Shown: positions 503-59,900 of the stretch, in pieces
Numbering within the stretch: the stretch's first letter is position 1
How the letters are laid out: each line of letters begins with the position of its first letter
Assembly: GCA_040756135.1 (NCBI GenBank)
Contig: JBFLZS010000007.1
Coordinates: 3,072 to 67,071, forward strand
Direction: 5' to 3'
Source: Nitrospirota bacterium
Lineage (GTDB): Bacteria; Nitrospirota; Thermodesulfovibrionia; Thermodesulfovibrionales; SM23-35
Length of the DNA: 64,000 bases
Made by a program: the position numbers and the translations under genes
Notes under the pieces: generated by a model
Databases searched by the model: none
What the model was told of the DNA's origin: nothing
The model's input: the letters and a program-made list of their open reading frames with translations, nothing else

Positions 503-772
503 ATGACGGAGAGGCGCAAGAAGGCGGCAGCCTTGAGGTATAGGCATGGAAAGGATTCTGCCCCAAAGGTTGTAGCAAAAGGAAGCGGAATCATAGCAGA
601 AAAGATTTTGAAGATAGCAAGGGAGCACAATATTCCAATAAAGGAAGATTTGCATCTTATAGAAGTCCTTTCAAATCTCGACCTTTATCAGGAAATACCC
701 CCTGAGCTTTACAGGGCGGTTGCAGAAATACTTGTCTTTGTTTATAAAATGACAAAGAAGGTGCAATATTAA
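503..772 (+). CDS. Stand-alone FlhB C-terminal-subdomain paralogue (YlqH / EscU-YscU-HrcU C-terminal family)
   Basis: 89 aa. Aligns by eye with the post-NPTH part of the FlhB in this window: [54 protein letters not shown] versus [54 protein letters not shown]. Confidence 0.85.
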
Positions 773-983: not shown

Positions 984-1385
984 CTATCTCAGAAGAATAC
1001 TTATGATTGCTCCAACCACGGAACCAATAAGGGCAGAAAGTGGAAGGATGTATTTGATGAGAAGTCTTCTTAATTCAGAAATCTCATTTCTAATTCCAGA
1101 AATCTCGTTTCTGATTCCAGAAATCTCGTTTCTGATTCCAGAAATCTCGTTTCTAATTCCAGAAATCTCATTTCTGAGATTCGTCTCAACTGTATCTATC
1201 TTTATATCTAATTGCTTAATCTCATTTCTGAGATTCGTCTCTATCTCCCTTGCAATCTCTTGCAGGTCAGCCTTTGTAGCAGCTCCACGCTGGATAGAAT
1301 CCTCGATAAAGGTGATTATGGCAGTTGCTTCTTCATCGCCGAGTTTTGGAGCAATCTTTTTATATACATCTACCGCAGTAAGCAT
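984..1385 (-). CDS. Coiled-coil, C-terminally membrane-anchored protein (DUF1640-like) with a five-fold RNEISGI heptad array
   Basis: 133 aa. Has an ATKADLQEI motif typical of DUF1640-like proteins, five RNEISGI heptads, and a hydrophobic C-terminus ILPLSALIGSVVGAIISILL. Confidence 0.7.
   Translation of the reverse strand: MLTAVDVYKKIAPKLGDEEATAIITFIEDSIQRGAATKADLQEIAREIETNLRNEIKQLDIKIDTVETNLRNEISGIRNEISGIRNEISGIRNEISGIRNEISELRRLLIKYILPLSALIGSVVGAIISILLR
1076..1187. repeat. 21-bp tandem repeat (about 5 units) inside the DUF1640-like gene
   Basis: Unit cagaaatctc[a/g]tttct[a/g]attc repeats head to tail from 1076. Each unit contains the small palindrome gaaatctcatttc. A related copy lies at 1217-1241. 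Confidence 0.9.
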
Positions 1386-1464: not shown

Positions 1465-2517
1465 TTATACGGAGTTTATTATCTCCCCGGCCATTTCTTC
1501 TAACGGCAGGACCTTATCTGCTATCCCAGCTTCAATTACTGCCTTTGGCATTCCATAAATGATACATGTTTCTTCGTTTTGTGCCAATATCCTTCCTCCT
1601 GACTTTTTTAATGTAATTAATCCCTTGAGTCCGTCATTTCCCATACCGGTAAGTATCACTCCAAGCGCCCTTTCAGGGAAATATTCAGCTACAGATGCCA
1701 TGAGGGCATCCACAGACGGGATATAAATAAATTCCTCTTTATTCTCGGAAATCCTTACAATAGTCTCTATTCCCCTTATCCTTAAGGCCCTCATATTCCC
1801 TTTACCAGGCGCTATCAGAGCGACGCCTGGCTTTAAGGGCTCTCCTTCCTCGGCCTCTTTCACAGTAATCTGACTGAGTTGGTCGAGTCTTTCAGCAAAG
1901 GGCTTTGTGAAATTTGGAGGCATATGCTGAGCTATCAGGATAGGGACAGGAAAATCCTTCGGCAATTTGGGTATTATATCCTGAAGGGCCTTTGGCCCAC
2001 CTGTGGAAGTGCCAATTGAAACAACTGCTATCCTACGTTCACCTGTTGCCCTAATGGGCATACCCCTTGGCATTTCAAAGGTCTTATGGTCAGCAACGTT
2101 TCTAAGATGTCTTCTCAGGACGCCCTTTTTTGATATCTGTTTTACTTTATTAATTAATATCTCCTTTATCTTGACTATGTTTATTGAAAGATCAGATAGA
2201 TTTTTTGGTATAAAATCCACAGCTCCAAGATCAAGGGCATCAAGGGTAACCTTTGCGCCCTCTGAAGTCAAGGAACTGACCATTATTACTGGGAGTGGAT
2301 TCTTTTCCATGATCTGCTTTAAAGCAGTCAGGCCATCCATCTTTGGCATCTCAACGTCCATGGTCACAATATCAGGCTTTAGAATTGCAGCCTTCTCTAT
2401 TGCTTCAAGCCCATCCTTTGCAGTACCTACAATTTTGATCTCCGGATCGGATGAAAGCATTTTTGTGAGGGCATTCCTCATGAATGCAGAGTCATCAACA
2501 ATAAGTACCTTTACCAT
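1465..2517 (-). CDS. cheB: Chemotaxis response regulator protein-glutamate methylesterase
   Basis: N-terminal receiver (VLIVDDSAFMR, DVEMPKMDG) plus methylesterase domain with GTSTGGP, AQHMPP and GMGNDG motifs. Confidence 0.95.
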   Translation of the reverse strand: MVKVLIVDDSAFMRNALTKMLSSDPEIKIVGTAKDGLEAIEKAAILKPDIVTMDVEMPKMDGLTALKQIMEKNPLPVIMVSSLTSEGAKVTLDALDLGAVDFIPKNLSDLSINIVKIKEILINKVKQISKKGVLRRHLRNVADHKTFEMPRGMPIRATGERRIAVVSIGTSTGGPKALQDIIPKLPKDFPVPILIAQHMPPNFTKPFAERLDQLSQITVKEAEEGEPLKPGVALIAPGKGNMRALRIRGIETIVRISENKEEFIYIPSVDALMASVAEYFPERALGVILTGMGNDGLKGLITLKKSGGRILAQNEETCIIYGMPKAVIEAGIADKVLPLEEMAGEIINSV

Positions 2518-2518
2518 G

Positions 2519-3769
2519 TTAAAATCCGAAATCCTTCAAAAGGTCATCAACGTCAGCCTGCGATACTTTCTCGTGAATTAATACCTCCGTCTTGCCATGT
2601 TCAATCTTGACGCCGAAGGTTGTTACCAATCTCACGAGCTCTTCTTCTATATCTCCCACAAGTTTGATGACCCGTTTTATGGTCTGCCCTGTAATGTCCT
2701 GAAAGGATTGAGTCGTGAGTATTTCCGTCAGATCATCCTCGAGTGAATTCTTAAAATTTTTAAGATAATTTACTGAATCTGCCGGCTCTTTTATATTTCT
2801 TATATGTGAGGAAATTTCATCCATACTCAGTATATATTTTTCGACTATCCCTAACGTCTTGTTTGCGGCCTCTTCTGTCTGATCCATGACAAACTGGAGC
2901 CTGTCAATAGCGTTGGGCATTTCCATCATTGCCATATTTTTGAGTTTAGGGTCAATGGCCTCCTTAAAACTTTTAATGGAGTCGTGAAGCTTTCTTGTAA
3001 TCTTACCCACCTCCTTAAAGAGGTCGCCCTGTCCTTTTTTGATGATATGCTGAATGGCATCGTCCGCTTTTTCATAATCCTGGACTGATAAGGCATCAAT
3101 AAAGTTGACGATGTCGTCAAATATTAGGTATCTGGGGTCGTTAGAGTCTATTCCCCTTTGTTCAAAAAAAGTCTTCGTATCGTATAGCTCCGTTACCTTC
3201 ATTTCTCCAGCCATTGTCTGAACTGTCTTTTCCACTTCAACCTTATCACCCCTTTCCTGAATATCAACAACAAAATCCTCAAAAAGACTCATATCATCGA
3301 GGGGGAGGAGTTTTTTTGTATCAAGAAGGACAACAAGTCTGTCAGGGAGTTTAGCAACCCCCTTGACCTGCTCCACATGGCCGTTTAAGAAACTTTCAGG
3401 AGGTTCTATGGATGATTCTTCTATGTTGATGACGCCGGTGATTCCGTCAACAAAAATGCCGAAGGTTATTTTTCCTGCGGCAATGACGATCACTTTATTA
3501 CTTTCAAATCCCCCCTCGCTCCCCTTTGACCCCTCTTTGTCCCTCTTTAGTAAGGGGGGAATTAAAGGGGGGTTGGGAGGATTATTTAAATTTACGAGCT
3601 TCTTTAGATTGACTATAGGGATGATGTTTCCTCTGATGTTTGTGATTCCCTCTATATATGGTGGAGATTGGGGCATTCTGGTTATGGAAGGTAAATTAAT
3701 TATTTCACGAACCTTCAGTATAGGGATCGTGTATTCATTACTATTAAGATTAAATCCAATATATTGCAT
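2519..3769 (-). CDS. CheW-CheZ fusion protein (coupling domain plus CheY-P phosphatase domain)
   Basis: N-terminus is CheW-like (YIGFNLNSNEYTIPILKVREI..IEGITNIRGNIIPIVNL..VVLLDTKKLL). C-terminus is CheZ-like (SFQDITGQTIKRVI and terminal SQADVDDLLKDFGF). Start placed at the ATG at 3769, preceded by GGAGGA; the ORF track offers 3784. Confidence 0.85.
   Translation of the reverse strand: MQYIGFNLNSNEYTIPILKVREIINLPSITRMPQSPPYIEGITNIRGNIIPIVNLKKLVNLNNPPNPPLIPPLLKRDKEGSKGSEGGFESNKVIVIAAGKITFGIFVDGITGVINIEESSIEPPESFLNGHVEQVKGVAKLPDRLVVLLDTKKLLPLDDMSLFEDFVVDIQERGDKVEVEKTVQTMAGEMKVTELYDTKTFFEQRGIDSNDPRYLIFDDIVNFIDALSVQDYEKADDAIQHIIKKGQGDLFKEVGKITRKLHDSIKSFKEAIDPKLKNMAMMEMPNAIDRLQFVMDQTEEAANKTLGIVEKYILSMDEISSHIRNIKEPADSVNYLKNFKNSLEDDLTEILTTQSFQDITGQTIKRVIKLVGDIEEELVRLVTTFGVKIEHGKTEVLIHEKVSQADVDDLLKDFGF
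3506..3583. repeat. Family B-prime palindromic element inserted in frame in the CheW domain
   Basis: aaatcccccctcgctcccctttgacccctctttgtccctctttagtaaggggggaattaaaggggggttgggaggatt, translated as NNPPNPPLIPPLLKRDKEGSKGSEGGFES. Confidence 0.8.
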
Positions 3770-3784: not shown

Positions 3785-3940
3785 AATAGTGTCTGTCCAT
3801 AAACTAATGTGTACATTCCGTCAGTCTCCCTGCTTACAACCTGCAGGGACAGGCTTAAGCCGGAATCCAGTGTTTTCAACAGGTTCTGGATTCCTGCCTA
3901 CGCAGGAATGACAAAAAACCTGACTTTATGGACAGACTCT
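3785..3940. mobile_element. Family A MITE-like element, full length
   Basis: Outer termini aatagtgtctgtccataaac and ctttatggacagactct flank two hairpin modules ending in ggaatccag and ctggattcc..ggaatgac. Confidence 0.75.
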
Positions 3941-4047
3941 AAATAGTGTCTGTGCATAAACTCGATTAATTACCGTTTTCTGTCATTCCGCTTGTCCGGA
4001 ATCTTTCTTTAAGAAGGATTCCCGACGCGCTTCGCTTGCGGGAATGA
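3941..4047. repeat. Family A element, partial copy abutting the previous one
   Basis: Starts with aaatagtgtctgtgcataaac and contains gtcattccgcttgtccggaatc and gcgggaatgac hairpin modules. No right outer terminus. Confidence 0.6.
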
Positions 4048-4060
4048 CAAAAATGATCAA

Positions 4061-4162
4061 ATAATAACCAATAACCAATTTCCAATAACCAAACTTTTTT
4101 GGAATTTGGTGTTTGGTTATTGAGATTTATTTGGATTTTGGAATTTGGTCATTGGTTATTTT
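4061..4162. repeat. Short-period (about 7 nt) hairpin repeat, family D
   Basis: aataaccaataaccaatttccaataaccaaac, then a T run, then ggaatttggtgtttggttattgag, followed by further ttggattttggaatttggtcattggttatt. Confidence 0.7.
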
Positions 4163-4173
4163 GTTATTTCTAT

Positions 4174-5844
4174 TCATTTCCTTACTCCGAGCACATTCCT
4201 CGATACCCCTGCAAGGTCGAGTATAAGAACAACCTTCCCATCACCCGTGATGGTGGCGCCAAGCACACAGGATGAATCTGTATCTATTCCCTCTACGGCC
4301 TTTATAACAATTTCCTCCTGACCCAAAAGCTCATCCACTGCAACGCAAAACTTTTTTCCCCCGATAGAGATGACAACGACGTATCTGTGCTGATAATCAG
4401 TCAGTCTGCCATTTCCAAGAATATCGGATAGCTCAAATATTGGGAGGACATTCCCCCTGATGACCAGAACCTTCTGGCCTACCACATCAGTAATATCTTT
4501 TTTTGAGACTTTAAGTGTTTCTACAACTGATGTAAGTGGTATAGCATAATGAGAGCTACCTGCACGCACCATAAGGGCCTGAATTATTGCCAGGGTAAGG
4601 GGTATGCTTATCCTGAATGTGGTTCCAATATCTTTTTTGGTTGTTATCTCGGCATAACCGTTGAGTTTTGATATATTTGTTTTCACAACATCCATCCCAA
4701 CCCCGCGGCCACTAAGTTCGGTAGCCACCTCAGCAGTGGAAAATCCCGGTAAGAATATGAGATTTGTTGCCGCCTCATCCGTCATGTTCATGGCTTCATC
4801 TTCTGTTATCAATCCCTTTTCACTGGCCTTTCTTTTAACCCGTTCCACATCTATTCCCCTGCCGTCGTCAGATACCTCAATTACAATCTGATTGCCTTTC
4901 TGGTAAGCGCTTATAGAAATGATGCCCTTTTCAGGTTTTCCTTTTGAACGCCTCTCTTGCATTGGCTCGATAGCATGATCAACGGCATTTCTTATAATGT
5001 GCACAAGGGGGTCTCCTATATGTTCAATCACGGACTTATCAACTTCTGTATCTTCACCGGATATCCTGAGGTCCACATCCTTCCCCAGGTTGCCGGATAT
5101 ATCTCTTACGAGGCGGGGAAACTTGCTGAAGACCTTCTGTATGGGCTGCATACGTATCCTCATAACAGCAAGCTGCATATCAGAGGTAACGAGGTCGAGG
5201 AAAGAAACAGTTTCAAAGAGGCTTTCGATGTAATGGTCTCCGGAATATTTCATTTCGAGATAATTCATGATATTTAGAAGTCTGTTTCTTATTAAAACAA
5301 CTTCACCTGTCAGGTCCATAACCTTATCAATTCTGTTTATGTCAACCCTGAGGGTTTGACCTGGTGACGAGTGACGAGTGACGAGTGAGGAGTCTTTTTC
5401 ACTTCTATCTTCTGATTCTTTTTTGACTTCTGGTTCCTGGTTCCTGACTTCTGACTCCTGAGATTTGAGTGCTATATCAAGTTCTTTCAAAAGAGGCGAA
5501 ATGTCTTCTTCTTTTCCATCCTTTAGTTTTATATGCTGAAGTAAGAGCCGGAGCAAATCTACGCTCTTTAGAATTACATCCATCAATTTCTTTGTGACTG
5601 AAATTTTGCCGTCTCTAAGTTTCTTCAGAATATTCTCTGCGCCATGCGCAACATCAACTATGGACTGGAAACCGAGGAAACCTGCAGCCCCCTTAACGGT
5701 ATGCATACTTCTGAATATCTCGTTTAAAATATCCTTATCATGACCCTTTGACTCGATCTCAATAAAAAGAGGATCTATCTTATCCAGAGACTCTTCCGCG
5801 TCTGTGATAAATTCTGATATTATCTCTTCCATCTCGTCAGGCAT
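4174..5844 (-). CDS. cheA: Chemotaxis histidine kinase CheA (P1, linker, P3-P4-P5; no obvious P2)
   Basis: Hpt motif SMHTVKGAAGFLGF; HATPase motifs HIIRNAVDHAIE, DDGRGID, GRGVGMDVV; C-terminal CheW-like domain. Confidence 0.95.
   Translation of the reverse strand: MPDEMEEIISEFITDAEESLDKIDPLFIEIESKGHDKDILNEIFRSMHTVKGAAGFLGFQSIVDVAHGAENILKKLRDGKISVTKKLMDVILKSVDLLRLLLQHIKLKDGKEEDISPLLKELDIALKSQESEVRNQEPEVKKESEDRSEKDSSLVTRHSSPGQTLRVDINRIDKVMDLTGEVVLIRNRLLNIMNYLEMKYSGDHYIESLFETVSFLDLVTSDMQLAVMRIRMQPIQKVFSKFPRLVRDISGNLGKDVDLRISGEDTEVDKSVIEHIGDPLVHIIRNAVDHAIEPMQERRSKGKPEKGIISISAYQKGNQIVIEVSDDGRGIDVERVKRKASEKGLITEDEAMNMTDEAATNLIFLPGFSTAEVATELSGRGVGMDVVKTNISKLNGYAEITTKKDIGTTFRISIPLTLAIIQALMVRAGSSHYAIPLTSVVETLKVSKKDITDVVGQKVLVIRGNVLPIFELSDILGNGRLTDYQHRYVVVISIGGKKFCVAVDELLGQEEIVIKAVEGIDTDSSCVLGATITGDGKVVLILDLAGVSRNVLGVRK
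5363..5462. repeat. Heptamer-type repeat DNA forming the CheA P1-P3 linker
   Basis: gtgacgagtgacgagtgacgagtgagg ... ttctggttcctggttcctgacttctgactcctga, translated as SQESEVRNQEPEVKKESEDRSEKDSSLVTRHSS. Confidence 0.65.
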
Positions 5845-5860: not shown

Positions 5861-5923
5861 GGGTCAAGGGTCATGGGGCAAGGGTCAAGTCAAAGACTTG
5901 ATAAGCCCTTGCCCCTTGACCCT
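5861..5923. repeat. Family D heptamer hairpin between cheA and cheY
   Basis: gggtcaagggtcatggggcaagggtcaag tcaaaga cttgataagcccttgccccttgaccct; the arms are largely complementary. Confidence 0.7.
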
Positions 5924-6314
5924 ATTTGTTCAGTTTCTCGAATATCTTATCCATCTTTTCCTTTAAAACCTCTGCTGTAAAGGGCTTCACGACATAATTA
6001 CTGACCCCTGCCTTTATAGCCACAATGACCTTTTCCTTCTCTGCCTCGGCTGTAACCATAAGGAATGGCATATCCTTTAATTCAGGGTCGCTTCGAACTT
6101 TTTTCAGTAGCTCAAGGCCGTCCATGTTCGGCATATTCCAATCAGCTACAACAAACCCAACACCCCCATTTTTTAATTTTGTATATGCCTGAGCGCCATC
6201 CTCTGCTTCTTCGAAGTTTTCATATCCCAGTTGTTTGTATATATTTCTTATAATCCTTCTCATTGTTGGAAAATCATCAACAATGAGGATCTTCATTTTG
6301 TAGTCAGGCATCAT
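5922..6314 (-). CDS. cheY: Chemotaxis response regulator CheY
   Basis: Single receiver domain with [22 protein letters not shown] and VVKPF. The start may be the second ATG (6311), given GGAGG spacing. Confidence 0.9.
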
Positions 6315-6693
6315 GGCCTCCTTTTGTGTATATATCCTTCAAGAGGTTTCTTATTTTTTCTATAACCACATCGGCAGTTACCGGTTTCACAACATAGCCA
6401 TTGGCTCCAGCCTTAAATGCCCTTTCTTTCTCCTCAGGGTCTGCTTCTGTTGAGACCATAAGGACAGGAATATGAACCCAGTTAGGATCGGACCTGATGG
6501 TCTTTACGAACTCAATGCCATCCATGTAAGGCATGTTAATGTCTGACAGAATCAGATTGATGTCCTCTGTTGCAAGCTTTTCTATTGCATCAAGGCCGTT
6601 TTCAGCAAATATAATATCAAAGCCTTTTGTCTTCAAATAGAGGCCGAGAAGTTTTCTCGTTGTCTGGCAATCATCAACTATCATAATCTTCAT
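6304..6693 (-). CDS. Second CheY-like single-domain response regulator
   Basis: [27 protein letters not shown]. Overlaps the cheY start. Confidence 0.85.
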
Positions 6694-6791: not shown

Positions 6792-7610
6792 TCATACTTT
6801 TTGGTATACCACTACCCTGTTAAAAATGACAGGCCTGAATGCCCTTGTTATATTATGAAGGCTTTCAGACGTGCCTATAAATAAAAATCCCCTGGTTTTC
6901 AGACTGCCGTATAAAAAAGATACAACCTTCTGTTTGGCCCTGTCATCGAAATAAATGAGGACATTGCGGCAAAATATAACATCAACATCACGCATAAACC
7001 TCATCTTTTTTTCATCAACAAGATTTATATTCATGAATTTGACAGAATTCTTTATAGAGTGTTCAAGCTCATAGGCGTGCCCGTTTACTCTAAAATATTT
7101 TTTGAGAAAGGGTTCTGGCACATTTCTTACGGAGTATGAGCTGTAAACAGCATTCACTGCAGATTTTAAAACTCCGGCACTTATATCTGATGCAAATACA
7201 TCCATACGGACAGTAGACATCCTTTCTTTATGCATCATCACAATGGTGTATGGTTCCTCTCCTGTGGAGCAGGCAGCAGACCATATCTTCAAATTATCAG
7301 TACCTCTGGTCTTAGTAACCTCCGGGATAATAAAATTAAAAAATACATCCAATTGCTGTTGTTCCCTGAAAAAGAAGGTTTCATTCGTTGTTACAGCATC
7401 GAAAAGCTTTGCAAGCTCATCTCCATTTGCGCTATACTTTAAAAGATATAGATAATCCTCAAAGCTGTTAATATTTTTCTCCTGAAGCCTTTTAATAAGT
7501 CTATTTTCAAGAAAATACTTTTTTATGTCGGGTATAAAGATACCGCTTGTTTCGTATATAAAATCCCTCAATTGTTTGAAAGTCGAATCTTGAAGTGGAA
7601 TATTCAGCAT
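6792..7610 (-). CDS. cheR: Chemotaxis protein methyltransferase
   Basis: TNETFFFRE, IWSAACSTGEEPYT and IFCRNVLIYFD motifs. Confidence 0.93.
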   Translation of the reverse strand: MLNIPLQDSTFKQLRDFIYETSGIFIPDIKKYFLENRLIKRLQEKNINSFEDYLYLLKYSANGDELAKLFDAVTTNETFFFREQQQLDVFFNFIIPEVTKTRGTDNLKIWSAACSTGEEPYTIVMMHKERMSTVRMDVFASDISAGVLKSAVNAVYSSYSVRNVPEPFLKKYFRVNGHAYELEHSIKNSVKFMNINLVDEKKMRFMRDVDVIFCRNVLIYFDDRAKQKVVSFLYGSLKTRGFLFIGTSESLHNITRAFRPVIFNRVVVYQKV

Positions 7611-7780: not shown

Positions 7781-9685
7781 TTATGTCTCTTTCAATAATT
7801 TTTCTGTTCCCACTTCGGCATTTTCAGAATGCCGGATGTTGTCAATTACCTGATGAACCATTTCCCTTATTCTACTGTCACTATGATTAAGCAAGGGGTT
7901 CAGTATACTAAGTGCCTTCTTGCCGCCGAGTCTGGCTACTGCATCGATAGTGGAAAGGACAACAGGGACCTCTTTGTCATAAAGCATAGGTTTAAGGGCA
8001 TTAATCATATCCTGCCTCAATGAATTTCCTAATGCCTTAACAGCGGAGAGCCTGACCCACATATCTTTATCATTAAGTATCGATTTGATCTCGTCGTGGC
8101 AGCAATTTAATTCACCCATTGCCTTCACAGCAGCCCTTCTTACTTCAGGCTCATCGTCATGCATGGCTTTAGCAAGCCTTTTATATGCCCTCTCATCATG
8201 TATTTTCCCGAGCCCTGCTATTGCAGATACCTTAATCTTAAGATCTTTATCTTCCGAGAAGGTAAGGAGTATATTGATGTCCTTTGCATATTTCCCGATG
8301 ACCTCTTTCACATAGCCACTAAGTTCATCGAGGTGTAAAAATAAGGCCGCAGGATCAATATTGAGAAGTGCATTAACAGCTTCCTCTATAACATCCCGGT
8401 ATCTCTCTATATAAAGAAGTTTCAGGAGGGACTGAACAGATGCCTTATCACCTATCTTTCCCAGAGCAGAGACAGTCGCCTTCCTTACATGTCCATCGTA
8501 ATCATAAATGGCATCTAAAAGCGTCTGCGTTGTATCCTCGTCGTTTATTTCACCGATGGCATTTATGGCTGCCCTTCTAACATCCCTGAATTTACTATCA
8601 AGTAGTCTTATAAGGTTTGGAACGGCTTTCTTACACCTTAAGTCCCCAAGCAGCTCGATAGCTATCTGCTTTCCCCTGTACTTAATGGTGGTATTATTCA
8701 GGATATCAATCAGTGAATTGCTGCATCCGAAGTTCTTTAGTGCATCTTTGATGATCTGAAGCTTCTCCTCGGCATCTGGTTCAGATGGATCAAGAGAACC
8801 AGCAATGTCAATTATGGTATAAATTGCCTTTTCTTCCCTTAAACCGACAATGCCTTTAAGTATCATAAGCCTCTCATACCAGTCACCATTTCGAAACATA
8901 TCTATGAGTACATCAGAGATCTCGGGCATTGCCGGAGTAATACCAATCTGGACAAGACTCTTTATGGTTGCTGTTTTTTCAAAACCTTCTGATTTTTGCA
9001 GATGCCTGAAGAGGGCATTACTTGAATGTAGCGAAGCTATCCTTCCAAGTGTATCTATGGCTGCATATCTAATAATATCGTATGGGCTATTGAGAAGGGA
9101 TACTATAGGTTCTATAGAGGACTCGTCCTTTAATAGTGCAAGGGATTCGAGGGCTGAGAAACAGACCCATTCCTCGTCTCTTAAGGCACCTATCAACTGG
9201 GGCAATGCATCTTTATAACGGAGAATGCCAATTGCCTTTGCAGCAGATGCCCTCACATTCGGATTGGGGTCACTCACAAGAATTCGAGCTATTTCCTCGG
9301 GGTAATTACACTCTTTAATTTCGCAGATAAGGTCAATGGCAAATTTGCGTATATCCTCATCTTTATCTTTTAAAAGGAAATAGAGTAGAGGAATTGAAGC
9401 TGACCCTATTTCTTTCAATATGATCATTGCTGTATTCCTGAGAAGAGGCTCATCCCTGAGAAGAGGTATAGCCATGTAAGCAGTGACCTCACCACCTATG
9501 GAGATTAAAGAACGCATTGCTGCATCCTGGACACCCGGGTTGTCATCCTTTAATGCCTTAATCAGGGGATATATAGCCCTTTCGTCACCGGAGGATAAAT
9601 CCTCAGCGGAGGAACGCCTTTTTGATGAATCGTTATGGGCGAGCCCCTTTAACAGCTTTGATAGTTTTTTAGTTCCTATGGTCAT
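7781..9685 (-). CDS. HEAT-repeat (PBS-lyase-type) protein, first gene of the chemotaxis operon
   Basis: 634 aa. Many recurring units of the form D.d..VR..A..ALG.ig, for example DDNPGVQDAAMRSL, DPNPNVRASAAKAIG, DDEPEVRRAAVKAMG. Confidence 0.8.
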   Translation of the reverse strand: MTIGTKKLSKLLKGLAHNDSSKRRSSAEDLSSGDERAIYPLIKALKDDNPGVQDAAMRSLISIGGEVTAYMAIPLLRDEPLLRNTAMIILKEIGSASIPLLYFLLKDKDEDIRKFAIDLICEIKECNYPEEIARILVSDPNPNVRASAAKAIGILRYKDALPQLIGALRDEEWVCFSALESLALLKDESSIEPIVSLLNSPYDIIRYAAIDTLGRIASLHSSNALFRHLQKSEGFEKTATIKSLVQIGITPAMPEISDVLIDMFRNGDWYERLMILKGIVGLREEKAIYTIIDIAGSLDPSEPDAEEKLQIIKDALKNFGCSNSLIDILNNTTIKYRGKQIAIELLGDLRCKKAVPNLIRLLDSKFRDVRRAAINAIGEINDEDTTQTLLDAIYDYDGHVRKATVSALGKIGDKASVQSLLKLLYIERYRDVIEEAVNALLNIDPAALFLHLDELSGYVKEVIGKYAKDINILLTFSEDKDLKIKVSAIAGLGKIHDERAYKRLAKAMHDDEPEVRRAAVKAMGELNCCHDEIKSILNDKDMWVRLSAVKALGNSLRQDMINALKPMLYDKEVPVVLSTIDAVARLGGKKALSILNPLLNHSDSRIREMVHQVIDNIRHSENAEVGTEKLLKET

Positions 9686-9728: not shown

Positions 9729-9789
9729 ACTATACCTAAACGTTGCATAAAATTATTAAGAGTTTCATAATTGAATAGACATTATTTAG

Positions 9790-9866
9790 AAAATCTCCCC
9801 TCGCCCCTCTTTGCCAAAGAGGGGTATGATTCCTCCCTTTGGCAAAGGGAGGTTAGGAGGGATTTT
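9790..9866. repeat. Family B double-hairpin element (core)
   Basis: aaaatctcccctcgcccctctttgccaaagaggggtatgattcctccctttggcaaagggaggttaggagggatttt. Flanked by imperfect outer inverted repeats (cataattgaatagacatt ... atgtgcatactataatgag). Confidence 0.85.
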
Positions 9867-9913
9867 ATGATTATTATGTGCATACTATAATGAGACGATT
9901 AATATCTAAAATC

Positions 9914-9982
9914 GTCATTGCCCGACTTGATCGGGCAATCCAGAGAAAGGTTCTGGATTATCCGGTCAAGCCGGATAATGAC
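9914..9982. repeat. Family A element (inner twin hairpins only)
   Basis: gtcattgcccgacttgatcgggcaatccag agaaaggtt ctggattatccggtcaagccggataatgac. Confidence 0.75.
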
Positions 9983-10000
9983 AAAAAAGAGTTCAATAAT

Positions 10001-10738
10001 TCACGTCAGAGAGGGAGCATGATTCAGCTTTGCCTTGAGCCTGATAAGGGCCTGGCTATGAAGCTGACATACTCTTCCCTCTGTAAGTTTTAGCGCCTTT
10101 GCTATCTCCTTCATCGTCATTTCATCCCAATAGTAGAGTGATAGAATGAGTTTTTCCTTTTCTGGAAGCTCATTGATAAGAACTGCAAGCACCTCCCTTT
10201 TATTGTTGTCTTCGAATACCTCAAGAGGACTTTTGGCATTAGGGTCTGGTATACATTCTGTAACGTCCAGACCGCTCTCTTCATACTTTTCGTTGAAATC
10301 CTCGAATCTCAATGTCACCCGGGAGTTTGCAATCTGTAATATCCTGTAATACTCATCAAGTAATATTCCGAGAGACCTTGCAACCTCTTCGTCTTCTGGT
10401 AATCGGCCAAGCTCTTTTTCAAGTTTAAGATGTGCTTTTTTGATAGAGTCAATCTTCTTCTTCATGGACCTGGGTATCCAGTTGTGTGCCCTCAGTTCAT
10501 CAAGCATTGCACCCTTTATCCTGAACTGGACAAACGTATTAAGCTTTACCCTTCCTTTGTTGTATCTCTGAAGGGCATCTAAGAGGCCTATTATTCCGAC
10601 ACTGGTGAGGTCGTCAACGGTTAGCTGCGGAGGTAATCTCCACGCTAATCTGTAGGCTGTATATTTTATGAACGGCAGAAATTCCTTGATGATCTGTTCC
10701 TTTCCTTCTTCGCTTATTTCTGTTTTATAGGTAATCAT
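10001..10738 (-). CDS. fliA: Flagellar RNA polymerase sigma factor (sigma-28)
   Basis: Region 2 (DDLTSVGIIGLLDALQRY), region 3, and region 4 HTH (MTMKEIAKALKLTEGRVCQLHSQAL). Positioned after flhF-flhG. Confidence 0.9.
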   Translation of the reverse strand: MITYKTEISEEGKEQIIKEFLPFIKYTAYRLAWRLPPQLTVDDLTSVGIIGLLDALQRYNKGRVKLNTFVQFRIKGAMLDELRAHNWIPRSMKKKIDSIKKAHLKLEKELGRLPEDEEVARSLGILLDEYYRILQIANSRVTLRFEDFNEKYEESGLDVTECIPDPNAKSPLEVFEDNNKREVLAVLINELPEKEKLILSLYYWDEMTMKEIAKALKLTEGRVCQLHSQALIRLKAKLNHAPSLT

Positions 10739-10764
10739 CTCATAATTGAATAGACATTAATCAA

Positions 10765-10841
10765 AAAATCTCCCCTCACCCCTCTTTGCCAAAGAGGGGT
10801 ATGATTCCTCCCTTTGGCAAAGGGAGGTTAGGAGGGATTTT
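10765..10841. repeat. Family B double-hairpin element (core)
   Basis: Near-identical to 9790-9866 by eye. Occupies the flhG-fliA spacer. Confidence 0.85.
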
Positions 10842-10895
10842 CTGATAATTATGTGCATACTATTTCGAGACTGCTAATAGATTGAGCTCCTCCGA

Positions 10896-11744: not shown

Positions 11745-12868
11745 GTATAGCTCCTTTTTCTTAAAATGAGACTGGTGAGTTTATCCGGTGTAATAAATTC
11801 AATGTCACCGGGAACCTTCTGGCCGGTTGTTACAAATGCAACCGGTTTCTGATATATGAGGAGCAGGTTATAAAGAGTTCCATACCGTACAGCTTCATCA
11901 ACTTTTGTAAAGGCAATATAGTCAACAGGCAACATTCTATAAAACCTGTATGCATCTATCATGAATTCATCATCAGAACTCGCACTCATGAGGAGATGAA
12001 GCTCTACGGGAACCTTTATCTGACATGCCGACAGTATCTCATTAATATATGACTCATCTCGCGGGTTTCTTCCGGTGGTATCAATAAAAATAATATCCCT
12101 GCTTTCCGAGTATCGTATGAGACACTCTTCAAGTTCTTTTCCTTGAGAAACGATCGAAAGCGGTATGCCCATAATCCTCGAATAGATCCGCACCTGTTCA
12201 ACAGCTCCTATCCTGTAAGTGTCAAGGTTGACCATCGCTGCTTTTTTGCCCTCTTGAATTGCAAGGGCAGAGAGTTTCGCAATGGTCGTTGTTTTGCCCA
12301 CGCCTGTTGGACCGATGAGCATAACAGCCTTCTTGTTAGTATTTATTGGCTTCACCTTTATATCATTCGATAGTAATGAAGGAATCTGGCTCAGATCTTT
12401 AGCTTTTTCACACAGACGGAGGGCGAATTCTTCACGTATCGATCTTTTTATGAGAAAATGCAGTATCATTCTTTTTTCAGGAGGTAATGAGAGGTTATAG
12501 CCGGTATTCTTCATGTTTTCTATAATCCCCTTAAGGCTGCCAATCTCATTTTTAATATCATCAACCAGTGTAGAAGAAAGCAGTTTAGAGCTCGAAGTTC
12601 GGAATTCGGAGTTTGCAATCCCCCCTTGCCCTCCTTTTTCAAATCCCCCCTTACCCCCCTTTTCCAAATCCCCCCTTACCCCCCTTTTTAAAGGGGGGAT
12701 GGGGGGATTATATCCTGAGTCATAATCAACCGCTGCAGTGACCTCAACAAAAGGTCTGATACCTCTTTTTTCTTCCGATGATAGTATTATTGCATCCTCA
12801 CTGAGTTCTTTTTTGATTAGGTCAAGGGCATCAGCAAAATTCCTTGCTTTGAATTTCTTAATCTTCAT
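11738..12868 (-). CDS. flhF: SRP-type GTPase FlhF
   Basis: NG-domain motifs LIGPTGVGKTTTIAKL, DTTGRN and FTKVDE. The N-terminal B domain carries a repeat insertion. Confidence 0.9.
   Translation of the reverse strand: MKIKKFKARNFADALDLIKKELSEDAIILSSEEKRGIRPFVEVTAAVDYDSGYNPPIPPLKRGVRGDLEKGGKGGFEKGGQGGIANSEFRTSSSKLLSSTLVDDIKNEIGSLKGIIENMKNTGYNLSLPPEKRMILHFLIKRSIREEFALRLCEKAKDLSQIPSLLSNDIKVKPINTNKKAVMLIGPTGVGKTTTIAKLSALAIQEGKKAAMVNLDTYRIGAVEQVRIYSRIMGIPLSIVSQGKELEECLIRYSESRDIIFIDTTGRNPRDESYINEILSACQIKVPVELHLLMSASSDDEFMIDAYRFYRMLPVDYIAFTKVDEAVRYGTLYNLLLIYQKPVAFVTTGQKVPGDIEFITPDKLTSLILRKRSYTC
12617..12709. repeat. Family B-prime palindromic element (left arm triplicated) in frame in the FlhF B domain
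   Basis: Three copies of aatcccccctt[g/a]cccc..tttt.c, then aaaggggggatggggggatt. Translated as NPPIPPLKRGVRGDLEKGGKGGFEKGGQGGIA. Confidence 0.85.
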
Positions 12869-14891
12869 ATTTCAAAACCCCTGTTGTATAAAGTTTTACA
12901 GATGGAGATATTTCGGCATTTGAGAGAATGACAACTGATGGGAGGAATCTCTCTGTAATCTTCCTGAGCAATCTTCGAGCATTTACTGAGCAAAGGATAA
13001 TTGGCTGAACCCCCTTAAACCTGTTTTCCTTCAGAGCGGTTTCGATTGCCCGTGTCATCTTGTTGACGATCTCGGGATTTATTGCGCCTCCAGCCTCAAG
13101 AGAATGTGAAAGCTCTTTTTCAAATTGTGGATCAAAAATCATCACATAGATGCTTCCGTCAGGCGTCATGTATTGTTTGGTTATATATCGTGAAAGTGCT
13201 TGTCTCACAAACTCTGTGAGTGTTTCGACATCTTTCACTGACGGGGCGTAATCGAGTAGAGTCTCAAGGATGGTAATCAGGTCATTGATCGGTACCCTCT
13301 CTTTCAAAAGATTCTGGAGCACTCTCTGAACACTGCCTAATGTAAGATGAGAAGGGATAAGCTCATCTATAATCTTCGGATAGTTCTTTGAAACATTATC
13401 CAGCAGGCTCTGGACTTCAGTCCTTGTAAGGAGCTCCGCAGCGTGTGCCTTTATTAGTTCTGTGAGGTGTGTGGCTATTACTGTTGCAGGGTCAACTACC
13501 ATGTAACCACTTGTTTGAGCCTTTTCTATGTCCCTCTCGCTGATCCAGAAGGCCGGGAGTCCGAATGCTGGCTCCTTTGTAGGTATCCCCTCTAATTTTT
13601 CTGCTTCAACTGAGGAGACAGCGAGGTAGTAACCCATCATAACCTCACCCTTTGCAACCTCAATGCCCCTTATAAGAAGGCTGTATTCGTGAGGCCTGAG
13701 CTGGAGGTTGTCCTTTATATGTATTGAAGGCACAACAAAGCCAAGTTCTGAAGCAAGTTGTTTCCTCATGGCCTTTATCTTATTAAGGAGATTTGACTTT
13801 TCTCCTTCTACAAGAGGAATCAGACCATATCCGATTTCGAGCGTGAGTGGTTCGATCTCCATGAATGTTTCGATGGCAGGTTCCCGCATTACTTGTTCGA
13901 CTTTTTCTTCTTTTTCTTCTATACCCTTGGCTGTGGAAATGATATACGCTAAAGCGCCTGAAGCAGCAGAAAGGAGCAAGAATGGAATATGAGGAAGTCC
14001 TGGTACAACTCCAAGAACAACCATAATACCTGAGGCAGTGCCAAGGGTCTTCGGATTTAATAATAACTGTTGAGTTATGTCTTTACTGAGATCTCTCTCA
14101 GTTCCGGCACGGCTTACAACTATGCCCGCTGCGGTGGATATAAGCAAAGCCGGGATCTGTGAAACTAAACCATCACCTATGGTAAGTATTGTATATGTTT
14201 TCGCTGCGTCTTCAATGGACATGCCTTTCTGTATTAAACCTATGATCAAACCACCTATGATGTTTATGCCGGTTATGATTAATCCTGCAATAGCGTCACC
14301 TCTCACAAATTTACTGGCACCGTCCATAGCGCCATAGAAATCAGCCTCTTGGGCAATGAGGGCTCTCCTTCTCCTTGCCTCTGATTCATCGATGAGCCCT
14401 GAATTAAGGTCCGCATCTATAGCCATCTGTTTGCCAGGCATACCATCGAGTGTAAAACGTGCAGCCACCTCTGCTATCCTTCCAGACCCTTTTGTGATGA
14501 CGACAAAATTGACGACTACCAATATCAGAAAGACAATGAAACCAACAGCATAGTTGCCACCAACAACAAAGCTTCCAAACGATTTTATCACCTGTCCAGC
14601 TGCTTCTATCCCTTCACTGCCCCTCAGTAAAATCAACCTTGTAGCTGCAATATTCAAAGCAAGCCTGTAGAGTGTTGTGAGGAGAAGGATGGAAGGGAAT
14701 ACAGAAAAATCTAATGGTTTCTTAATATAAATGCCAGTTATGATTATAACTATTGAAATCGATATTGAAAAGGAGAGGAGGATATCCAGTATGAATGGTG
14801 GAACAGGGAGGATCATAACACCTAAAATGGCCACAACACTTATTGCGATGGTAAAATCCTGCCTCTGTTGAATCAGGTTGAGGAATCTCAT
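12858..14891 (-). CDS. flhA: Flagellar export apparatus protein FlhA
   Basis: FHIPEP-family motifs (RFTLDGMPGKQMAIDADL), eight-TM-type N-terminus, large cytoplasmic C-domain. Confidence 0.97.
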   Translation of the reverse strand: MRFLNLIQQRQDFTIAISVVAILGVMILPVPPFILDILLSFSISISIVIIITGIYIKKPLDFSVFPSILLLTTLYRLALNIAATRLILLRGSEGIEAAGQVIKSFGSFVVGGNYAVGFIVFLILVVVNFVVITKGSGRIAEVAARFTLDGMPGKQMAIDADLNSGLIDESEARRRRALIAQEADFYGAMDGASKFVRGDAIAGLIITGINIIGGLIIGLIQKGMSIEDAAKTYTILTIGDGLVSQIPALLISTAAGIVVSRAGTERDLSKDITQQLLLNPKTLGTASGIMVVLGVVPGLPHIPFLLLSAASGALAYIISTAKGIEEKEEKVEQVMREPAIETFMEIEPLTLEIGYGLIPLVEGEKSNLLNKIKAMRKQLASELGFVVPSIHIKDNLQLRPHEYSLLIRGIEVAKGEVMMGYYLAVSSVEAEKLEGIPTKEPAFGLPAFWISERDIEKAQTSGYMVVDPATVIATHLTELIKAHAAELLTRTEVQSLLDNVSKNYPKIIDELIPSHLTLGSVQRVLQNLLKERVPINDLITILETLLDYAPSVKDVETLTEFVRQALSRYITKQYMTPDGSIYVMIFDPQFEKELSHSLEAGGAINPEIVNKMTRAIETALKENRFKGVQPIILCSVNARRLLRKITERFLPSVVILSNAEISPSVKLYTTGVLKYED

Positions 14892-15922
14892 GCTACTCCC
14901 CTTACGTTATAAATGTATGCCAATATCTTTGCTACTGCTCTGTAGAGATCTACTGGTATAAATGAATCTAAATTAAGCTTATAAAGCGCCCTGGCCAATG
15001 GTTTGTCTTCCACAATAGGGATGTGATTTTTGCGGGCTATCTCTTTAATCTTCTCAGCGACGAATCCCGCGCCCTTTGCGATGACCATCGGAGCCGACAT
15101 CTCTTCTTTTTTATATTTGAGGGCGACAGCGATATGGGTTGGGTTTGTTATGACTACCGTCGCCTTCGGAACCTCCTGCATCATACGTCTCCGTGCCAGC
15201 TCCCTCTGAATACTCTTGACCCTTGACTTTACTAATGGGTCACCCTCTGTTTCTTTGTATTCCTCTTTTACTTCATGTTTCGTCATTTTAAGAGAGCGTT
15301 CGAACCTCCATCTTTCATAGAGATAATCCATGACAGCGAAAATAAAAAACGTCATGAAAATTATGATGACAGCCTTAAATAGGAGTCTGCCGGATACCCG
15401 CATGATCTCCCTGATATCCATAGCCTGTGTAAAGGGAAGTATTGCAATAAGACTTTTTATAATTAGATAAAATATGAACCCCCCCACAGCAAACTTTAAA
15501 AGACTCTTGAGAAACTCTACGATGCCATATCTCGAAAATAATCTCTTGAATCCATTGATAGGATTGAGCCTTTCTGTTTCAAGACTCAGGGGCTTCAGAA
15601 TGAAGCCGCCCTGCAATACCCCTGTCAACACAGCGAAAGCGAATGCAATCCCGAGGAAGGGAAATAATATCCAGAACATTTCAGATGCTGCAAATCTCAT
15701 GGCAAAGGCAGGATTGCTCCCATATTGCAGATTGAGAAGTTTTCTCATCAACTCTGACATGTTGACTATGAAAGAACTTCCTGAAAAATAGAACATGAGT
15801 ATTATTCCACCGGTAGCAGACATTGATATAAGTTCTCTGCTCCTCGCAACCTGTCCTTTCTCCTTTGCCTTCTGTTGCCTTCTCGGCGTTGCCTGTTCAG
15901 TTCTTTCTTCGAATCCAGCCAT
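14888..15922 (-). CDS. flhB: Flagellar export switch protein FlhB
   Basis: N-terminal EERTEQATPRR, four-TM region, NPTH autocleavage site (VVITNPTHIAVAL). Confidence 0.95.
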   Translation of the reverse strand: MAGFEERTEQATPRRQQKAKEKGQVARSRELISMSATGGIILMFYFSGSSFIVNMSELMRKLLNLQYGSNPAFAMRFAASEMFWILFPFLGIAFAFAVLTGVLQGGFILKPLSLETERLNPINGFKRLFSRYGIVEFLKSLLKFAVGGFIFYLIIKSLIAILPFTQAMDIREIMRVSGRLLFKAVIIIFMTFFIFAVMDYLYERWRFERSLKMTKHEVKEEYKETEGDPLVKSRVKSIQRELARRRMMQEVPKATVVITNPTHIAVALKYKKEEMSAPMVIAKGAGFVAEKIKEIARKNHIPIVEDKPLARALYKLNLDSFIPVDLYRAVAKILAYIYNVRGVA

Positions 15923-20252: not shown

Positions 20253-20408
20253 AATAGTGTCTGTGTATAAACTGCTGTTCGGATAATCCGTCATTCCCCG
20301 ACTTGATCCCCCGATCAAGTCGGAGGACGGAATCCAGTGTTTTCAATATGTTCTGGATTGTCCGGTCAAGCCGGACAATGACAAAATACGACTTTATACA
20401 CAGATTCT
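20253..20408. mobile_element. Family A MITE-like element, full length
   Basis: aatagtgtctgtgtataaac ... twin hairpins ... actttatacacagattct. Confidence 0.8.
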
Positions 20409-20429
20409 GTTTAATGCGTTTGTATTAAT

Positions 20430-21772: not shown

Positions 21773-21918
21773 TATTAATCACCTCCTTTCATTATTTTTA
21801 TCTCCACCCATCAGTTGCATAATTTTTAATGTAGAACGTCTCTAAATGATCTGCTAGCGTGCATTTGAAGTCTAATATCATATCGCCGTTAAAGTTCACT
21901 TAAAGTTAACTCCTTGTT

Positions 21919-21987
21919 GTCATTCTCCGGCTTGACCGGAGAATCCAGTTTTTTTCTCTGGATTGCCCGATCAAGTCGGGCAATGAC
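21919..21987. repeat. Family A element (inner twin hairpins)
   Basis: gtcattctccggcttgaccggagaatccag ttttttt ctctggattgcccgatcaagtcgggcaatgac. Confidence 0.75.
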
Positions 21988-22047
21988 GATCGTTGGATAA
22001 TTTATGCAACATTTGGGTCCACATGTTGTATTTTTACCGTTGTCATC

Positions 22048-24657: not shown

Positions 24658-24813
24658 TAAATAGTGTCTCCATAAAGTCGTATTTTGTCATTGTCCGGCT
24701 TGACCGGACAATCCAGAACCTATTGAAAACACTGGATTCCGTCCTCCGACTTGATCGGGGGATCAAGTCGGGGAATGACGGATAACTTAATTCTTAGTTT
24801 ATGGATAGATTCT
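24658..24813. mobile_element. Family A MITE-like element, full length
   Basis: aaatagtgtctccataaag ... gtcattgtccggcttgaccggacaatccag ... ggggaatgac ... agtttatggatagattct. Confidence 0.8.
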
Positions 24814-30365: not shown

Positions 30366-30677
30366 TTATACCTGCATCCTCATGATCTCTTCATAGGCGC
30401 TCAACAGCTTATTCCTCACCTCAACCATCAAATTAAAAGACATGTCTGCTTTCTCCATAGCTATAATCGCCTGGGTTATATCACCGCCTGACGCCAATTC
30501 TTTGACAGCTTTTTCAGCATCGTTCTGCACCAGATAAATCTTACCAACGGCCTCATGCAATATATCGTCAAATCCCTGAGCTGAAGCCTTGCTGTCAGCC
30601 TTAACCTGTAATCCCCCCTCGCCCCCCTTTAGTAAAGGGGGGGTGGTGGGATTATTCGCAATCCTCATATCAGACAT
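30366..30677 (-). CDS. fliE: Flagellar hook-basal body protein FliE
   Basis: C-terminal AIIAMEKADMSFNLMVEVRNKLLSAYEEIMRMQV. Positioned upstream of fliF. Confidence 0.85.
   Translation of the reverse strand: MSDMRIANNPTTPPLLKGGEGGLQVKADSKASAQGFDDILHEAVGKIYLVQNDAEKAVKELASGGDITQAIIAMEKADMSFNLMVEVRNKLLSAYEEIMRMQV
30610..30653. repeat. Family B-prime 44-bp palindrome in frame near the FliE N-terminus
   Basis: aatcccccctcgcccccctttagtaaagggggggtggtgggatt, translated as NNPTTPPLLKGGEGGLQ. Confidence 0.85.
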
Positions 30678-30769: not shown

Positions 30770-30903
30770 CTGTCTGTGTATAAACTAATAATTAAGTTAT
30801 CCGTCATTCCCCGACTTGATCGGGGAATCCAGTGTTTTCAAAGACCTATGGATTGTCCGGTCAAGCCGGACAATGACAAACCCCGACTTTATACACAGAC
30901 TCT
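30770..30903. mobile_element. Family A MITE-like element, full length (good reference copy)
   Basis: ctgtctgtgtataaac ... gtcattccccgacttgatcggggaatccag ... ggattgtccggtcaagccggacaatgac ... actttatacacagactct. Confidence 0.85.
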
Positions 30904-30929
30904 AATTAAGTTTTTGTTCTTACCGGGCA

Positions 30930-36267: not shown

Positions 36268-36379
36268 GAGGATAACATCTGGAATTTAAAGTAAATTTTC
36301 TTTTCCTGTCAAAATAATGACTTCCGGGAAGGGCCTATGAAGTTAATAACAGACTCATAATTGAATGTACATTTATTAT

Positions 36380-36486
36380 AAAATCTCCCCTCCCCCCTCT
36401 TTGCCAAAGAGGGGTATTACACACCCCTACACCCCTCAAGAGGGGATTATTCCTCCCTTTGGCAAAGGGAGGTTAGGAGGGATTTT
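36380..36486. repeat. Family B element with an extra internal hairpin
   Basis: As in the other copies, plus an inserted acacacccctacacccctcaagaggggatta. Confidence 0.8.
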
Positions 36487-36493
36487 ATAAATA

Positions 36494-37909: not shown

Positions 37910-37963
37910 AAGAACACTATAGAATAATTTGGTCTAACTGTCAATACTTTGACTCTTTTTGAT

Positions 37964-38093
37964 GTCTGTCCATAAATTATGACTTATACAATTAGTCATT
38001 CCCCGACCTGATCGGGGAATCCAGAGTTTTTAATAGGCCATGGATTGTCCGGTCAAGCCGGACAATGACAGAATATGAGTTTATGGACAGACA
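37964..38093. mobile_element. Family A MITE-like element, full length
   Basis: tgtctgtccataaat ... twin hairpins ... gtttatggacagacat. Confidence 0.85.
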
Positions 38094-38146
38094 TTATTTT
38101 ATGCATGAGACATTAATGCTTTCATAATTGAATAGACATTTACCGG

Positions 38147-38287
38147 AAAATCTCCCCTTGCCCCTCTTTACCAAAGAGGGGTATGGTTCGGCAAGCTCAC
38201 CATGACATTTGTCATCCTGAGCCTGTCGAAGGATGGCAAAGGGAGGCTTCTGCGTGAACTCGGCCGAACGCTCAGGAGAAATTTTCC
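38147..38287. repeat. Family B element interrupted by a family C module
   Basis: aaaatctccccttgcccctctttaccaaagaggggtatggt, then tcggcaagctcaccatgacatttgtcatcctgagcctgtcgaaggatg, then gcaaagggagg... Confidence 0.7.
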
Positions 38288-38387
38288 TATGTGGAAATTT
38301 TTTCCTCATATCTTTGAACATTGCTGTTTGACTCTTAACGAGATATTTCAATATTAACAGACTCATAATTGAATGTACATTTATTAT

Positions 38388-38464
38388 AAAATCTCCCCTG
38401 CCCCCTCTTTGCCAAAGAGGGGCTTTATTCCTCCCTTTGGCAAAGGGAGGTTAGGAGGGATTTT
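38388..38464. repeat. Family B double-hairpin element (core)
   Basis: aaaatctcccctgccccctctttgccaaagaggggctttattcctccctttggcaaagggaggttaggagggatttt. Confidence 0.85.
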
Positions 38465-38547
38465 GTAAAACTAATGTAGTTATTATTATGAGAACATTAA
38501 TAAGTTCCATTTTTTACGAACGTATCTATTATGTATCTTTTTCAGAT

Positions 38548-54642: not shown

Positions 54643-54775
54643 TTATTCTAACATTGTTTTTCTTCTCTATCAGTTTTATGAAAAGAGTGACCATGAAGAA
54701 ATATCCTTCTTTGTTACAAATGAGGAAAGGGACAAGAAATAGTTCACCGTTCTCCGATAAAGTAATTCAAAGCTT

Positions 54776-56050: not shown

Positions 56051-56053
56051 TCT

Positions 56054-57184: not shown

Positions 57185-57194
57185 GACAGACAAG

Positions 57195-59873: not shown

Positions 59874-59900
59874 ATCTATTTCCCTCTATTTAAATATATT

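Follow-up and report, generated by a model that had tools for sequence, protein, structure and literature searches.

A conserved CheW-CheZ fusion in the flagellar chemotaxis operon of a Nitrospirota bacterium, probably an array-tethered CheY-P phosphatase

The stretch of DNA described here, 64,000 nucleotides of a Nitrospirota bacterium (NCBI GenBank assembly GCA_040756135.1, contig JBFLZS010000007.1, positions 3,072 to 67,071), is called the window and contains a complete flagellar cluster, motAB and a polysaccharide locus. One of its chemotaxis genes, called cheWZ below, joins the coupling protein CheW and the phosphatase CheZ in a single polypeptide. The fusion is genuine and conserved, with catalytic motif and CheY-binding tail both intact, and the gene product is probably a bifunctional chemotaxis protein, that is, a CheY-P phosphatase tethered to the chemoreceptor array. 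Such fusions are catalogued yet uncharacterised, and they are neither a new enzyme nor a new pathway. The gene and its parts, all on the minus strand, are as follows.

2519..3769, minus: cheW-cheZ fusion gene, 416 amino acids plus stop; the protein is identical to NCBI MEW6417071.1
3774..3779, minus: ribosome-binding site AGGAGG, 4 nt 5' of the cheWZ ATG, read from the sequence
3305..3769, minus: CheW domain, residues 1-155 (Pfam, AlphaFold2 (AF2), Foldseek and a census of interface residues)
3506..3583, minus: lineage-specific insertion NPPNPPLIPPLLKRDKEGSKGSEGGF within the CheW domain, residues 63-88, about 22-26 residues (alignment of homologues)
3158..3304, minus: linker, residues 156-204 (AF2), consisting of the CheW C-terminal helix, followed by a small beta-meander of low confidence (motif V.V.K....GGE..V.E)
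2522..3157, minus: CheZ module, residues 205-416 (Pfam, alignment to 1KMI, AF2)
2666..2710, minus: catalytic helix motif QSFQDITGQTIKRVI (phmmer alignment to 1KMI)
2522..2563, minus: C-terminal CheY-P-binding peptide SQADVDDLLKDFGF (alignment to E. coli CheZ)

An earlier note on this DNA, made from the letters alone, had proposed that CheW and CheZ are fused here, and had suggested searches with the two Pfam models. The proposal is borne out: the gene is one uninterrupted open reading frame (ORF) of 416 codons in which no stop or frameshift separates the cheW and cheZ halves, and both matches lie far above the curated cut-offs, namely PF01584 (CheW; E=6.5e-32, 110.5 bits with a cut-off of 23.5, residues 2-155) and PF04344 (CheZ; E=1.1e-34, 120.6 bits with a cut-off of 30.7, in two stretches from residue 249 on). 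The start codon is the ATG at 3769, and homologues likewise begin with MQYIGF. An internal start giving a free CheZ was considered and rejected, as the internal Met codons have no convincing ribosome-binding site in the sequence. The NCBI entry is titled "MAG: protein phosphatase CheZ [Nitrospirota bacterium]" (MAG, metagenome-assembled genome), and JGI labels CheW-CheZ proteins as "chemotaxis signal transduction protein/CheZ".

The CheW half has the two-subdomain beta-barrel fold of CheW and CheA-P5, according to the AF2 model (predicted local distance difference test, pLDDT, 85-93 outside the insertion) and Foldseek. Its matches to the CheW chains 6S1K_C, 2QDL, 8C5V_E and 2CH4_W have E values of 9e-13 to 4e-11 and template modelling (TM) scores, by target, of 0.76-0.83; that to 6S1K_C, CheW in the E. 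coli core signalling unit, has E=9e-13 and TM 0.79. The fold had been placed at residues of about 6-190 and stands as such, with its end moved to nearer residue 155-163. The interface residues compared were those tabulated in a 2026 review (PMC13098124), in E. coli CheW numbering. The receptor-contact core (I33, V36, E38, I39, R62, G99, V105, S106, V108 and G133) is 93-100% conserved in the fusions, R62, equivalent to R46 of the fusion, being invariant in 59 of them, and the CheA-P5 interface-1 residues (T46, P49, G57, N60, G63 and P67) are 91-100% conserved. In the window protein the equivalents of I33, V36, E38, I39, R62, G99, V105, V108, T46, G57, N60, G63 and P67 are identical or conservative. 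Moreover, both contact sets agree with the stand-alone CheWs of the same lineage (same residue or conservative class), and conservation among the fusions is 0.74 in interface columns versus 0.63 in non-interface columns.

The CheZ half was compared with the E. coli enzyme directly. A phmmer search of the fusion against 1KMI_Z gave E=2.8e-10 and pairs QSFQDITGQTIKRVI with E. coli QDFQDLTGQVIKRMM (PDB 1KMI), so that D143 stands opposite D358 and Q147 opposite Q362; D358 and Q362 are invariant in 59 fusions reaching down to 31% identity (alignments A4, A5 and A7). The C-terminal peptide SQADVDDLLKDFGF lies opposite SQDQVDDLLDSLGF, residues 200-214 of E. coli CheZ translated from NC_000913, and in the 59 fusions Q404 and L411 are invariant and V407, L410, F414, G415 and F416 are at least 90% conserved. 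Both elements, the catalytic Gln included, had been recognised in the earlier note, and they do align with those of the actual E. coli protein. The AF2 model divides the module into N-terminal helices, a long helical hairpin (residues 274-324 and 330-385), then a disordered tether at 386-401 and lastly a helix at the C-terminus (404-413), and this predicted anatomy of hairpin, tether and C-terminal helix matches the CheZ plan. In addition, long gammaproteobacterial CheZ proteins align with the fusion from about residue 200-233 onward. A third domain at residues 158-250 was considered and rejected: the segment has no Pfam or PDB match and several distant fusions have low-complexity linkers in place of the beta motif, so it is assigned to the linker and to the N-terminal helices of the CheZ module.

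The same architecture is found in many other genomes. PF01584 and PF04344 occur together in all of the best 120 of 1014 database matches at E<=1e-5; these proteins have 380-416 amino acids and are spread over independent assemblies of NCBI, JGI, ENA and Logan. When 1.84 billion cluster representatives were searched exhaustively, about 17 clusters of full-length fusions emerged at the 50% identity level, the most distant being about 33% identical; of 10 cluster representatives analysed with Pfam, eight had both domains and two were CheZ proteins standing alone. The cultured Dissulfurispira thermophila, whose genome is complete, has the orthologue WP_203471643.1. In a survey of loci with one genome per GTDB species, full-length fusions were found in 23 loci (one cut at a contig end), all of them in Nitrospirota, Thermodesulfovibrionales or Dissulfurispiraceae-type MAGs, a few of which bear older "Deltaproteobacteria" labels. 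The Nitrospirota fusion loci share the fixed order flhF-flhG-fliA-HEAT-cheR-cheY2-cheY1-cheA-cheWZ-cheB. Fifty-six of the other 57 loci kept, mostly from Gammaproteobacteria, match only residues of about 200-416 with 30-42% identity. The description of CheZ as beta/gammaproteobacterial, given in the earlier note as established, needs widening, because the CheW-CheZ fusion is a phylum-level trait of Nitrospirota.

The remaining locus, L022 (DATIXD010000135.1), is a 4.8-kb contig binned as Methylococcaceae with the order cheB-cheY-cheZ and a stand-alone CheZ. This CheZ is 59% identical to fusion residues 185-416 and the accompanying CheY is 65% identical to CheY1 of the window; L022 may be the product of a fission, a near relative without the fusion or a contig placed in the wrong bin. 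A neighbour-joining tree of the CheZ modules intermixes fused and stand-alone forms within one clade, distinct from gammaproteobacterial CheZ. The tree is built on 184 columns and may include truncated ORFs such as P0136, which starts within the linker, and it accommodates one fusion with later fissions as well as several independent fusions.

CheZ appears to be the phosphatase of this flagellar system, because the window lacks genes for CheC, CheX, CheD and a FliY-type phosphatase; the absence of the first three, which the earlier note had reported for the rest of the operon, holds for all 64 kb. FliN in the window is a plain 112-aa protein, and no MCP gene was found in the window either. Covalent attachment of this phosphatase to the array, as had been supposed, is the most economical reading of the fusion, since the CheW half keeps the residues for contact with both receptor and CheA-P5. 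The N-terminal CheW domain would dock in the chemoreceptor-CheA lattice and, as ordinary CheW does, touch the tips of receptors and its neighbours in the ring, CheA-P5 or CheW, and a linker of about 50 residues would connect it to the CheZ module. By homology with E. coli CheZ, this module would dimerise through its long helical hairpin, its tethered C-terminal peptide would capture CheY-P, and Gln362, with Asp358, would enter the CheY active site and accelerate dephosphorylation. A CheY-P phosphatase would thereby be held permanently next to the kinase without a CheA-short adaptor, an arrangement from which a physiological benefit may arise. The fusion would be an additional array component filling a share of the CheW positions, probably only part of them, since a separate CheW usually coexists with it in the lineage.

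The possibility that frameshift, mis-assembly or read-through has joined cheW and cheZ, or that a repeat insertion has turned the gene into a pseudogene, is effectively refuted and deserves hardly any weight. In its favour are locus L019, where the gene is split into two overlapping ORFs, and the insertion NPPNPPLIPPLLKRDKEGSKGSEGGF, a piece of repeat element in the window copy. However, cheA is split too on the L019 contig, as sequencing errors would have it, and the fusion is a single ORF in hundreds of independent NCBI, JGI, ENA and Logan assemblies, the complete genome of the cultured isolate among them. The insertion, which is missing in 13 of 14 aligned homologues, is in frame, is common to P0002 (79% identical, on a 3.8-kb contig) and falls in a predicted disordered loop (pLDDT <50), and the catalytic and binding residues of the window fusion are intact. 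Quite improbable, too, is that the fusion is the sole protein coupling receptors to the kinase, so that every core signalling unit would have a built-in phosphatase fixed 1:1 to the CheW positions. The interface residues needed for coupling are retained, and a hidden Markov model built from the CheW family matches only the fusion and CheA-P5 in the window, a count for the window rather than for the whole genome, as the fusion gene is only 2.5 kb from its edge; furthermore, 7 of the 23 related fusion loci also have no separate cheW within 10 kb downstream. Against this, a separate cheW (150-180 aa) is present within 10 kb in 14 of the 23, directly after cheWZ in five of them, and in the D. thermophila-type complete genome, whose operon has no cheW, a canonical CheW (P0278) is encoded 1.28 Mb away, on the 2.45-Mb contig that also carries the fusion, and adjoins a PilJ-HAMP-MCP-CZB receptor. 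Further stand-alone CheWs were found on contigs of the same size as fusion-bearing ones (113,282 bp and 151,975 bp). From one compared species to another, stand-alone CheWs share 64-68% identity, a sign of strong selection. The statement in the earlier note that this is the only stand-alone CheW-domain gene of the operon is therefore literally right for the window and does not extend to a sole coupling protein, and, by analogy with the relatives, a stand-alone CheW is likely to be present elsewhere in the source genome.

A somewhat less improbable alternative, still rather unlikely, is that the CheW domain is a localisation tag or has been repurposed, either binding one partner (for example CheA-P5 or one receptor class) outside the lattice or taking CheZ to a site other than the array. 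The CheW domain of the fusion is only 32-41% identical to the stand-alone CheW of the same genome, so that, compared with the 64-68% between species, the two are old paralogues; recent duplication of a neighbouring cheW as the source of the CheW half is excluded by the same figures. Interface-2 and CheW-ring positions (E121, A123 and F75) are poorly conserved in the fusions. However, the receptor-contact core and interface-1 residues are kept as well as in bona fide CheW, and the fold superposes on array-embedded CheW (6S1K_C). Several observations do weigh against array tethering as set out above. The fusions differ systematically from stand-alone CheW at some contact positions (D107 to G, Q37 to R and G41 to N), substitutions which also speak for a repurposed domain, and for this reason their partner preference may differ. 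The insertion lies between the residues that correspond to F75 and N85/T86 of E. coli CheW, positions listed near CheW-CheW and receptor contacts (PMC13098124), so that a repeat-derived loop could weaken or alter docking in the source organism. The isolated CheZ model (residues 205-416) has 1KMI_Z as its top Foldseek match, yet a weak one (E=0.49, TM 0.3), and for the whole-protein model 1KMI comes only at rank 24; Foldseek cannot discriminate long helical hairpins, so the evidence for the CheZ fold is that of sequence. The scores with the NCBIfam equivalog models fall far below their cut-offs for both CheW (NF007903, 76.5 bits versus 260) and CheZ (NF008368, 72.3 bits versus 257); the fusion is a CheW-domain protein that belongs to both Pfam families and is no orthologue-grade equivalent of enterobacterial CheW or CheZ. 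As an elaboration of the tethered phosphatase, a CheZ dimer would join two CheW domains and might act as a bivalent lattice element bridging neighbouring CheW positions or core units and changing array connectivity and cooperativity, and might also put the phosphatase under the conformational control of receptors, kinase and phosphatase then being switched reciprocally by the array. This is a tentative idea, possible though unlikely; if true, such a bivalent element or receptor-regulated push-pull would be a way of controlling chemotaxis signals that is not known from any model organism.

The DNA of the insertion is a C-run/G-run imperfect palindromic repeat element (about AAAATCCCCCCTnnCCCCCCTTTAnTAAAGGGGGGnnAGGGGGGATTTT). 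The same element is in frame in flhF (about 12600-12710, minus strand), where it gives the loop PPIPPLKRGVRGDLEKGGKGGFEKGGQGG in FlhF; it thus adds Pro/Gly/Lys-rich loops to two motility proteins, and intergenic copies occur at about 215-275 and 30605-30650. Short interspersed repeats resembling miniature inverted-repeat transposable elements (MITE) or repetitive extragenic palindromic (REP) sequences, of families D1-D6, D12 and D13, occupy nearly every intergenic gap among the flagellar and che genes. The neighbouring features are the following.

1465..2517, minus: cheB (REC plus methylesterase; Pfam), with its ATG 1 nt past the cheWZ stop
3785..4173, no strand: the roughly 400 bp that separate cheA from cheWZ, occupied by pieces of interspersed repeats
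4174..5844, minus: cheA (Hpt, dimerisation, HATPase and P5/CheW-like domains; Pfam)
5922..6693, minus: two single-domain CheY genes, CheY1 at 5922-6314 and CheY2 at 6304-6693 (Pfam)
6792-7610, minus: cheR, a conserved operon member
7781-9685, minus: HEAT-repeat protein of 634 aa, a conserved operon member
58-314, 3861-3892, 9754-9992, 10729-10879, 20276-20412, 21917-21997, 24664-24789, 30771-30907, 36344-36500 and 37963-38502: MITE/REP-like repeats (repeat search)

As the cheB ATG is so close to the cheWZ stop, the two genes are probably translationally coupled. On the other side, cheA and cheWZ abut or overlap in relatives, unlike in the window with its repeat-filled gap. CheA gave no Pfam match to a P2 (CheY-binding) or a REC domain, and a low-complexity linker of about 60 residues stands where P2 would be. 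CheY1 is 60-70% identical to the CheY of stand-alone-CheZ loci, both gammaproteobacterial ones and L028. The 634-aa protein between fliA and cheR consists entirely of HEAT repeats and is kept in the majority of the Nitrospirota loci with coverage of the upstream flank. Downstream of cheB, at 984-1385 (minus), is a gene for a 133-aa coiled-coil protein with five tandem 21-nt units (NEISGIR heptads) and a hydrophobic C-terminal segment; a D. thermophila-type genome has, after cheWZ, a 122-aa gene with faint coiled-coil Pfam matches (L085, 11206-11574). Also in the D. thermophila records AP022873.1 and BLAB01000001.1 (L083/L084, 10001-14309), the ordinary cheW of the lineage has the PilJ-HAMP-MCP-CZB receptor and a GGDEF protein as neighbours and is distant from the flagellar che operon. 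Another small ORF of the window, at 503-772 (plus), encodes 89 aa whose match to FlhB is confined to the C-terminal part (positions 262-335 of Pfam Bac_export_2), and a full-length flhB lies apart from it at 14888-15922. Finally, the region 54000-60000 has a guanine + cytosine content of 29-31% versus about 41% elsewhere and carries glycosyltransferase, Wzy-like, flippase and methyltransferase genes; this cluster may be a horizontally acquired polysaccharide island.

The architecture itself is already on record in NCBI and JGI protein names, in hundreds of public proteins and in the work of Vass et al., who placed CheW-CheZ among the rare CheW architectures and excluded it from their study (<40 sequences in RP35). 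The earlier note knew of no characterisation of it, and on this point it stands, as no functional study of a CheW-CheZ fusion was found in the literature and a search on CheZ fusions and on CheZ in Thermodesulfovibrio or Nitrospirae gave nothing relevant; the architecture as such is not new. Where bacteria place the chemotaxis phosphatase with respect to the kinase has long been a question of design, and this lineage is a natural experiment in which CheZ has been placed covalently on an array-docking domain and fixed across a whole class of Nitrospirota. The fusion bears on the benefit of co-localisation, on the phosphatase-to-kinase stoichiometry in arrays and on a possible structural role of a dimeric CheW-bearing protein, and it is readily testable in Dissulfurispira thermophila, a cultured representative with a complete genome. 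In addition, CheZ-type phosphatases are not confined to Proteobacteria.

Among the systems studied so far, that of E. coli is the most direct comparison. E. coli CheZ reaches the receptor patches via CheA-short (Cantwell et al. 2003), and modelling papers argue that co-localisation of kinase and phosphatase shapes CheY-P signalling (PMC1447658, PMC2673030). E. coli CheZ with CheA-short and the fusion have in common the D143/Q147 motif, the C-terminal CheY-binding peptide, the plan of a helical hairpin with a flexible tether (predicted in the fusion) and, as the presumed outcome, a phosphatase at the receptor patch. However, the E. coli enzyme, 214 aa long, stands alone and takes a non-covalent route to the array through CheA-short, whereas CheZ of the fusion is covalently joined to a CheW domain; the fusion gene is placed after cheA and E. 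coli cheZ after cheY; and the two CheZ sequences are 32% identical, the hairpin of the fusion being about 10 residues shorter on each arm. The fusion is thus best read as a covalent alternative to the CheA-short route of E. coli.

In the stand-alone-CheZ loci, almost all of which are gammaproteobacterial, the order (flhB)-flhF-flhG-fliA-cheY-cheZ-cheA-cheB-...-cheW is found in 45 of 56. Because of this gene order, the Nitrospirota system has its backbone of flagellar and che genes in common with the flagellar che cluster of the Vibrio/Shewanella type. This cluster, with that of Pseudomonas, is presumably class F6 in the scheme of Wuichet and Zhulin. In comparison with two gammaproteobacterial loci, CheY is 60-61% identical, CheA about 43% and CheB about 40%. 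The differences lie in cheZ, which is a stand-alone gene between cheY and cheA in the Vibrio/Shewanella type and is behind cheA and fused to a cheW domain in the fusion loci, and in the Vibrio/Shewanella type having neither a HEAT-repeat gene nor cheR at that position, and one cheY versus two.

Other lineages have fixed a phosphatase by other means. Leptospirae have CheA-CheC/CheX fusions, likewise uncharacterised (Zhulin-lab preprint, PMC10542144). They resemble CheW-CheZ in carrying a CheY-P phosphatase covalently on an array component, with kinase and phosphatase proposed to be in one complex, but their phosphatase is CheC/CheX instead of CheZ and the carrier is CheA instead of CheW. CheV (CheW-REC) and other CheW fusions share with CheW-CheZ an N-terminal CheW-like domain that anchors to the array a C-terminal signalling module, which is a phosphatase in CheW-CheZ and a phospho-acceptor in CheV. 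In Helicobacter pylori, CheZ(HP) is placed at the pole by ChePep independently of the array, and in Bacillus subtilis the phosphatase domain of FliY is fused to a FliN-like structural subunit and is located at the motor, not at the receptors. CheZ(HP) with ChePep and FliY are like the CheW-CheZ fusion in that each is a lineage-specific way of fixing a CheY-P phosphatase at a defined cellular site.

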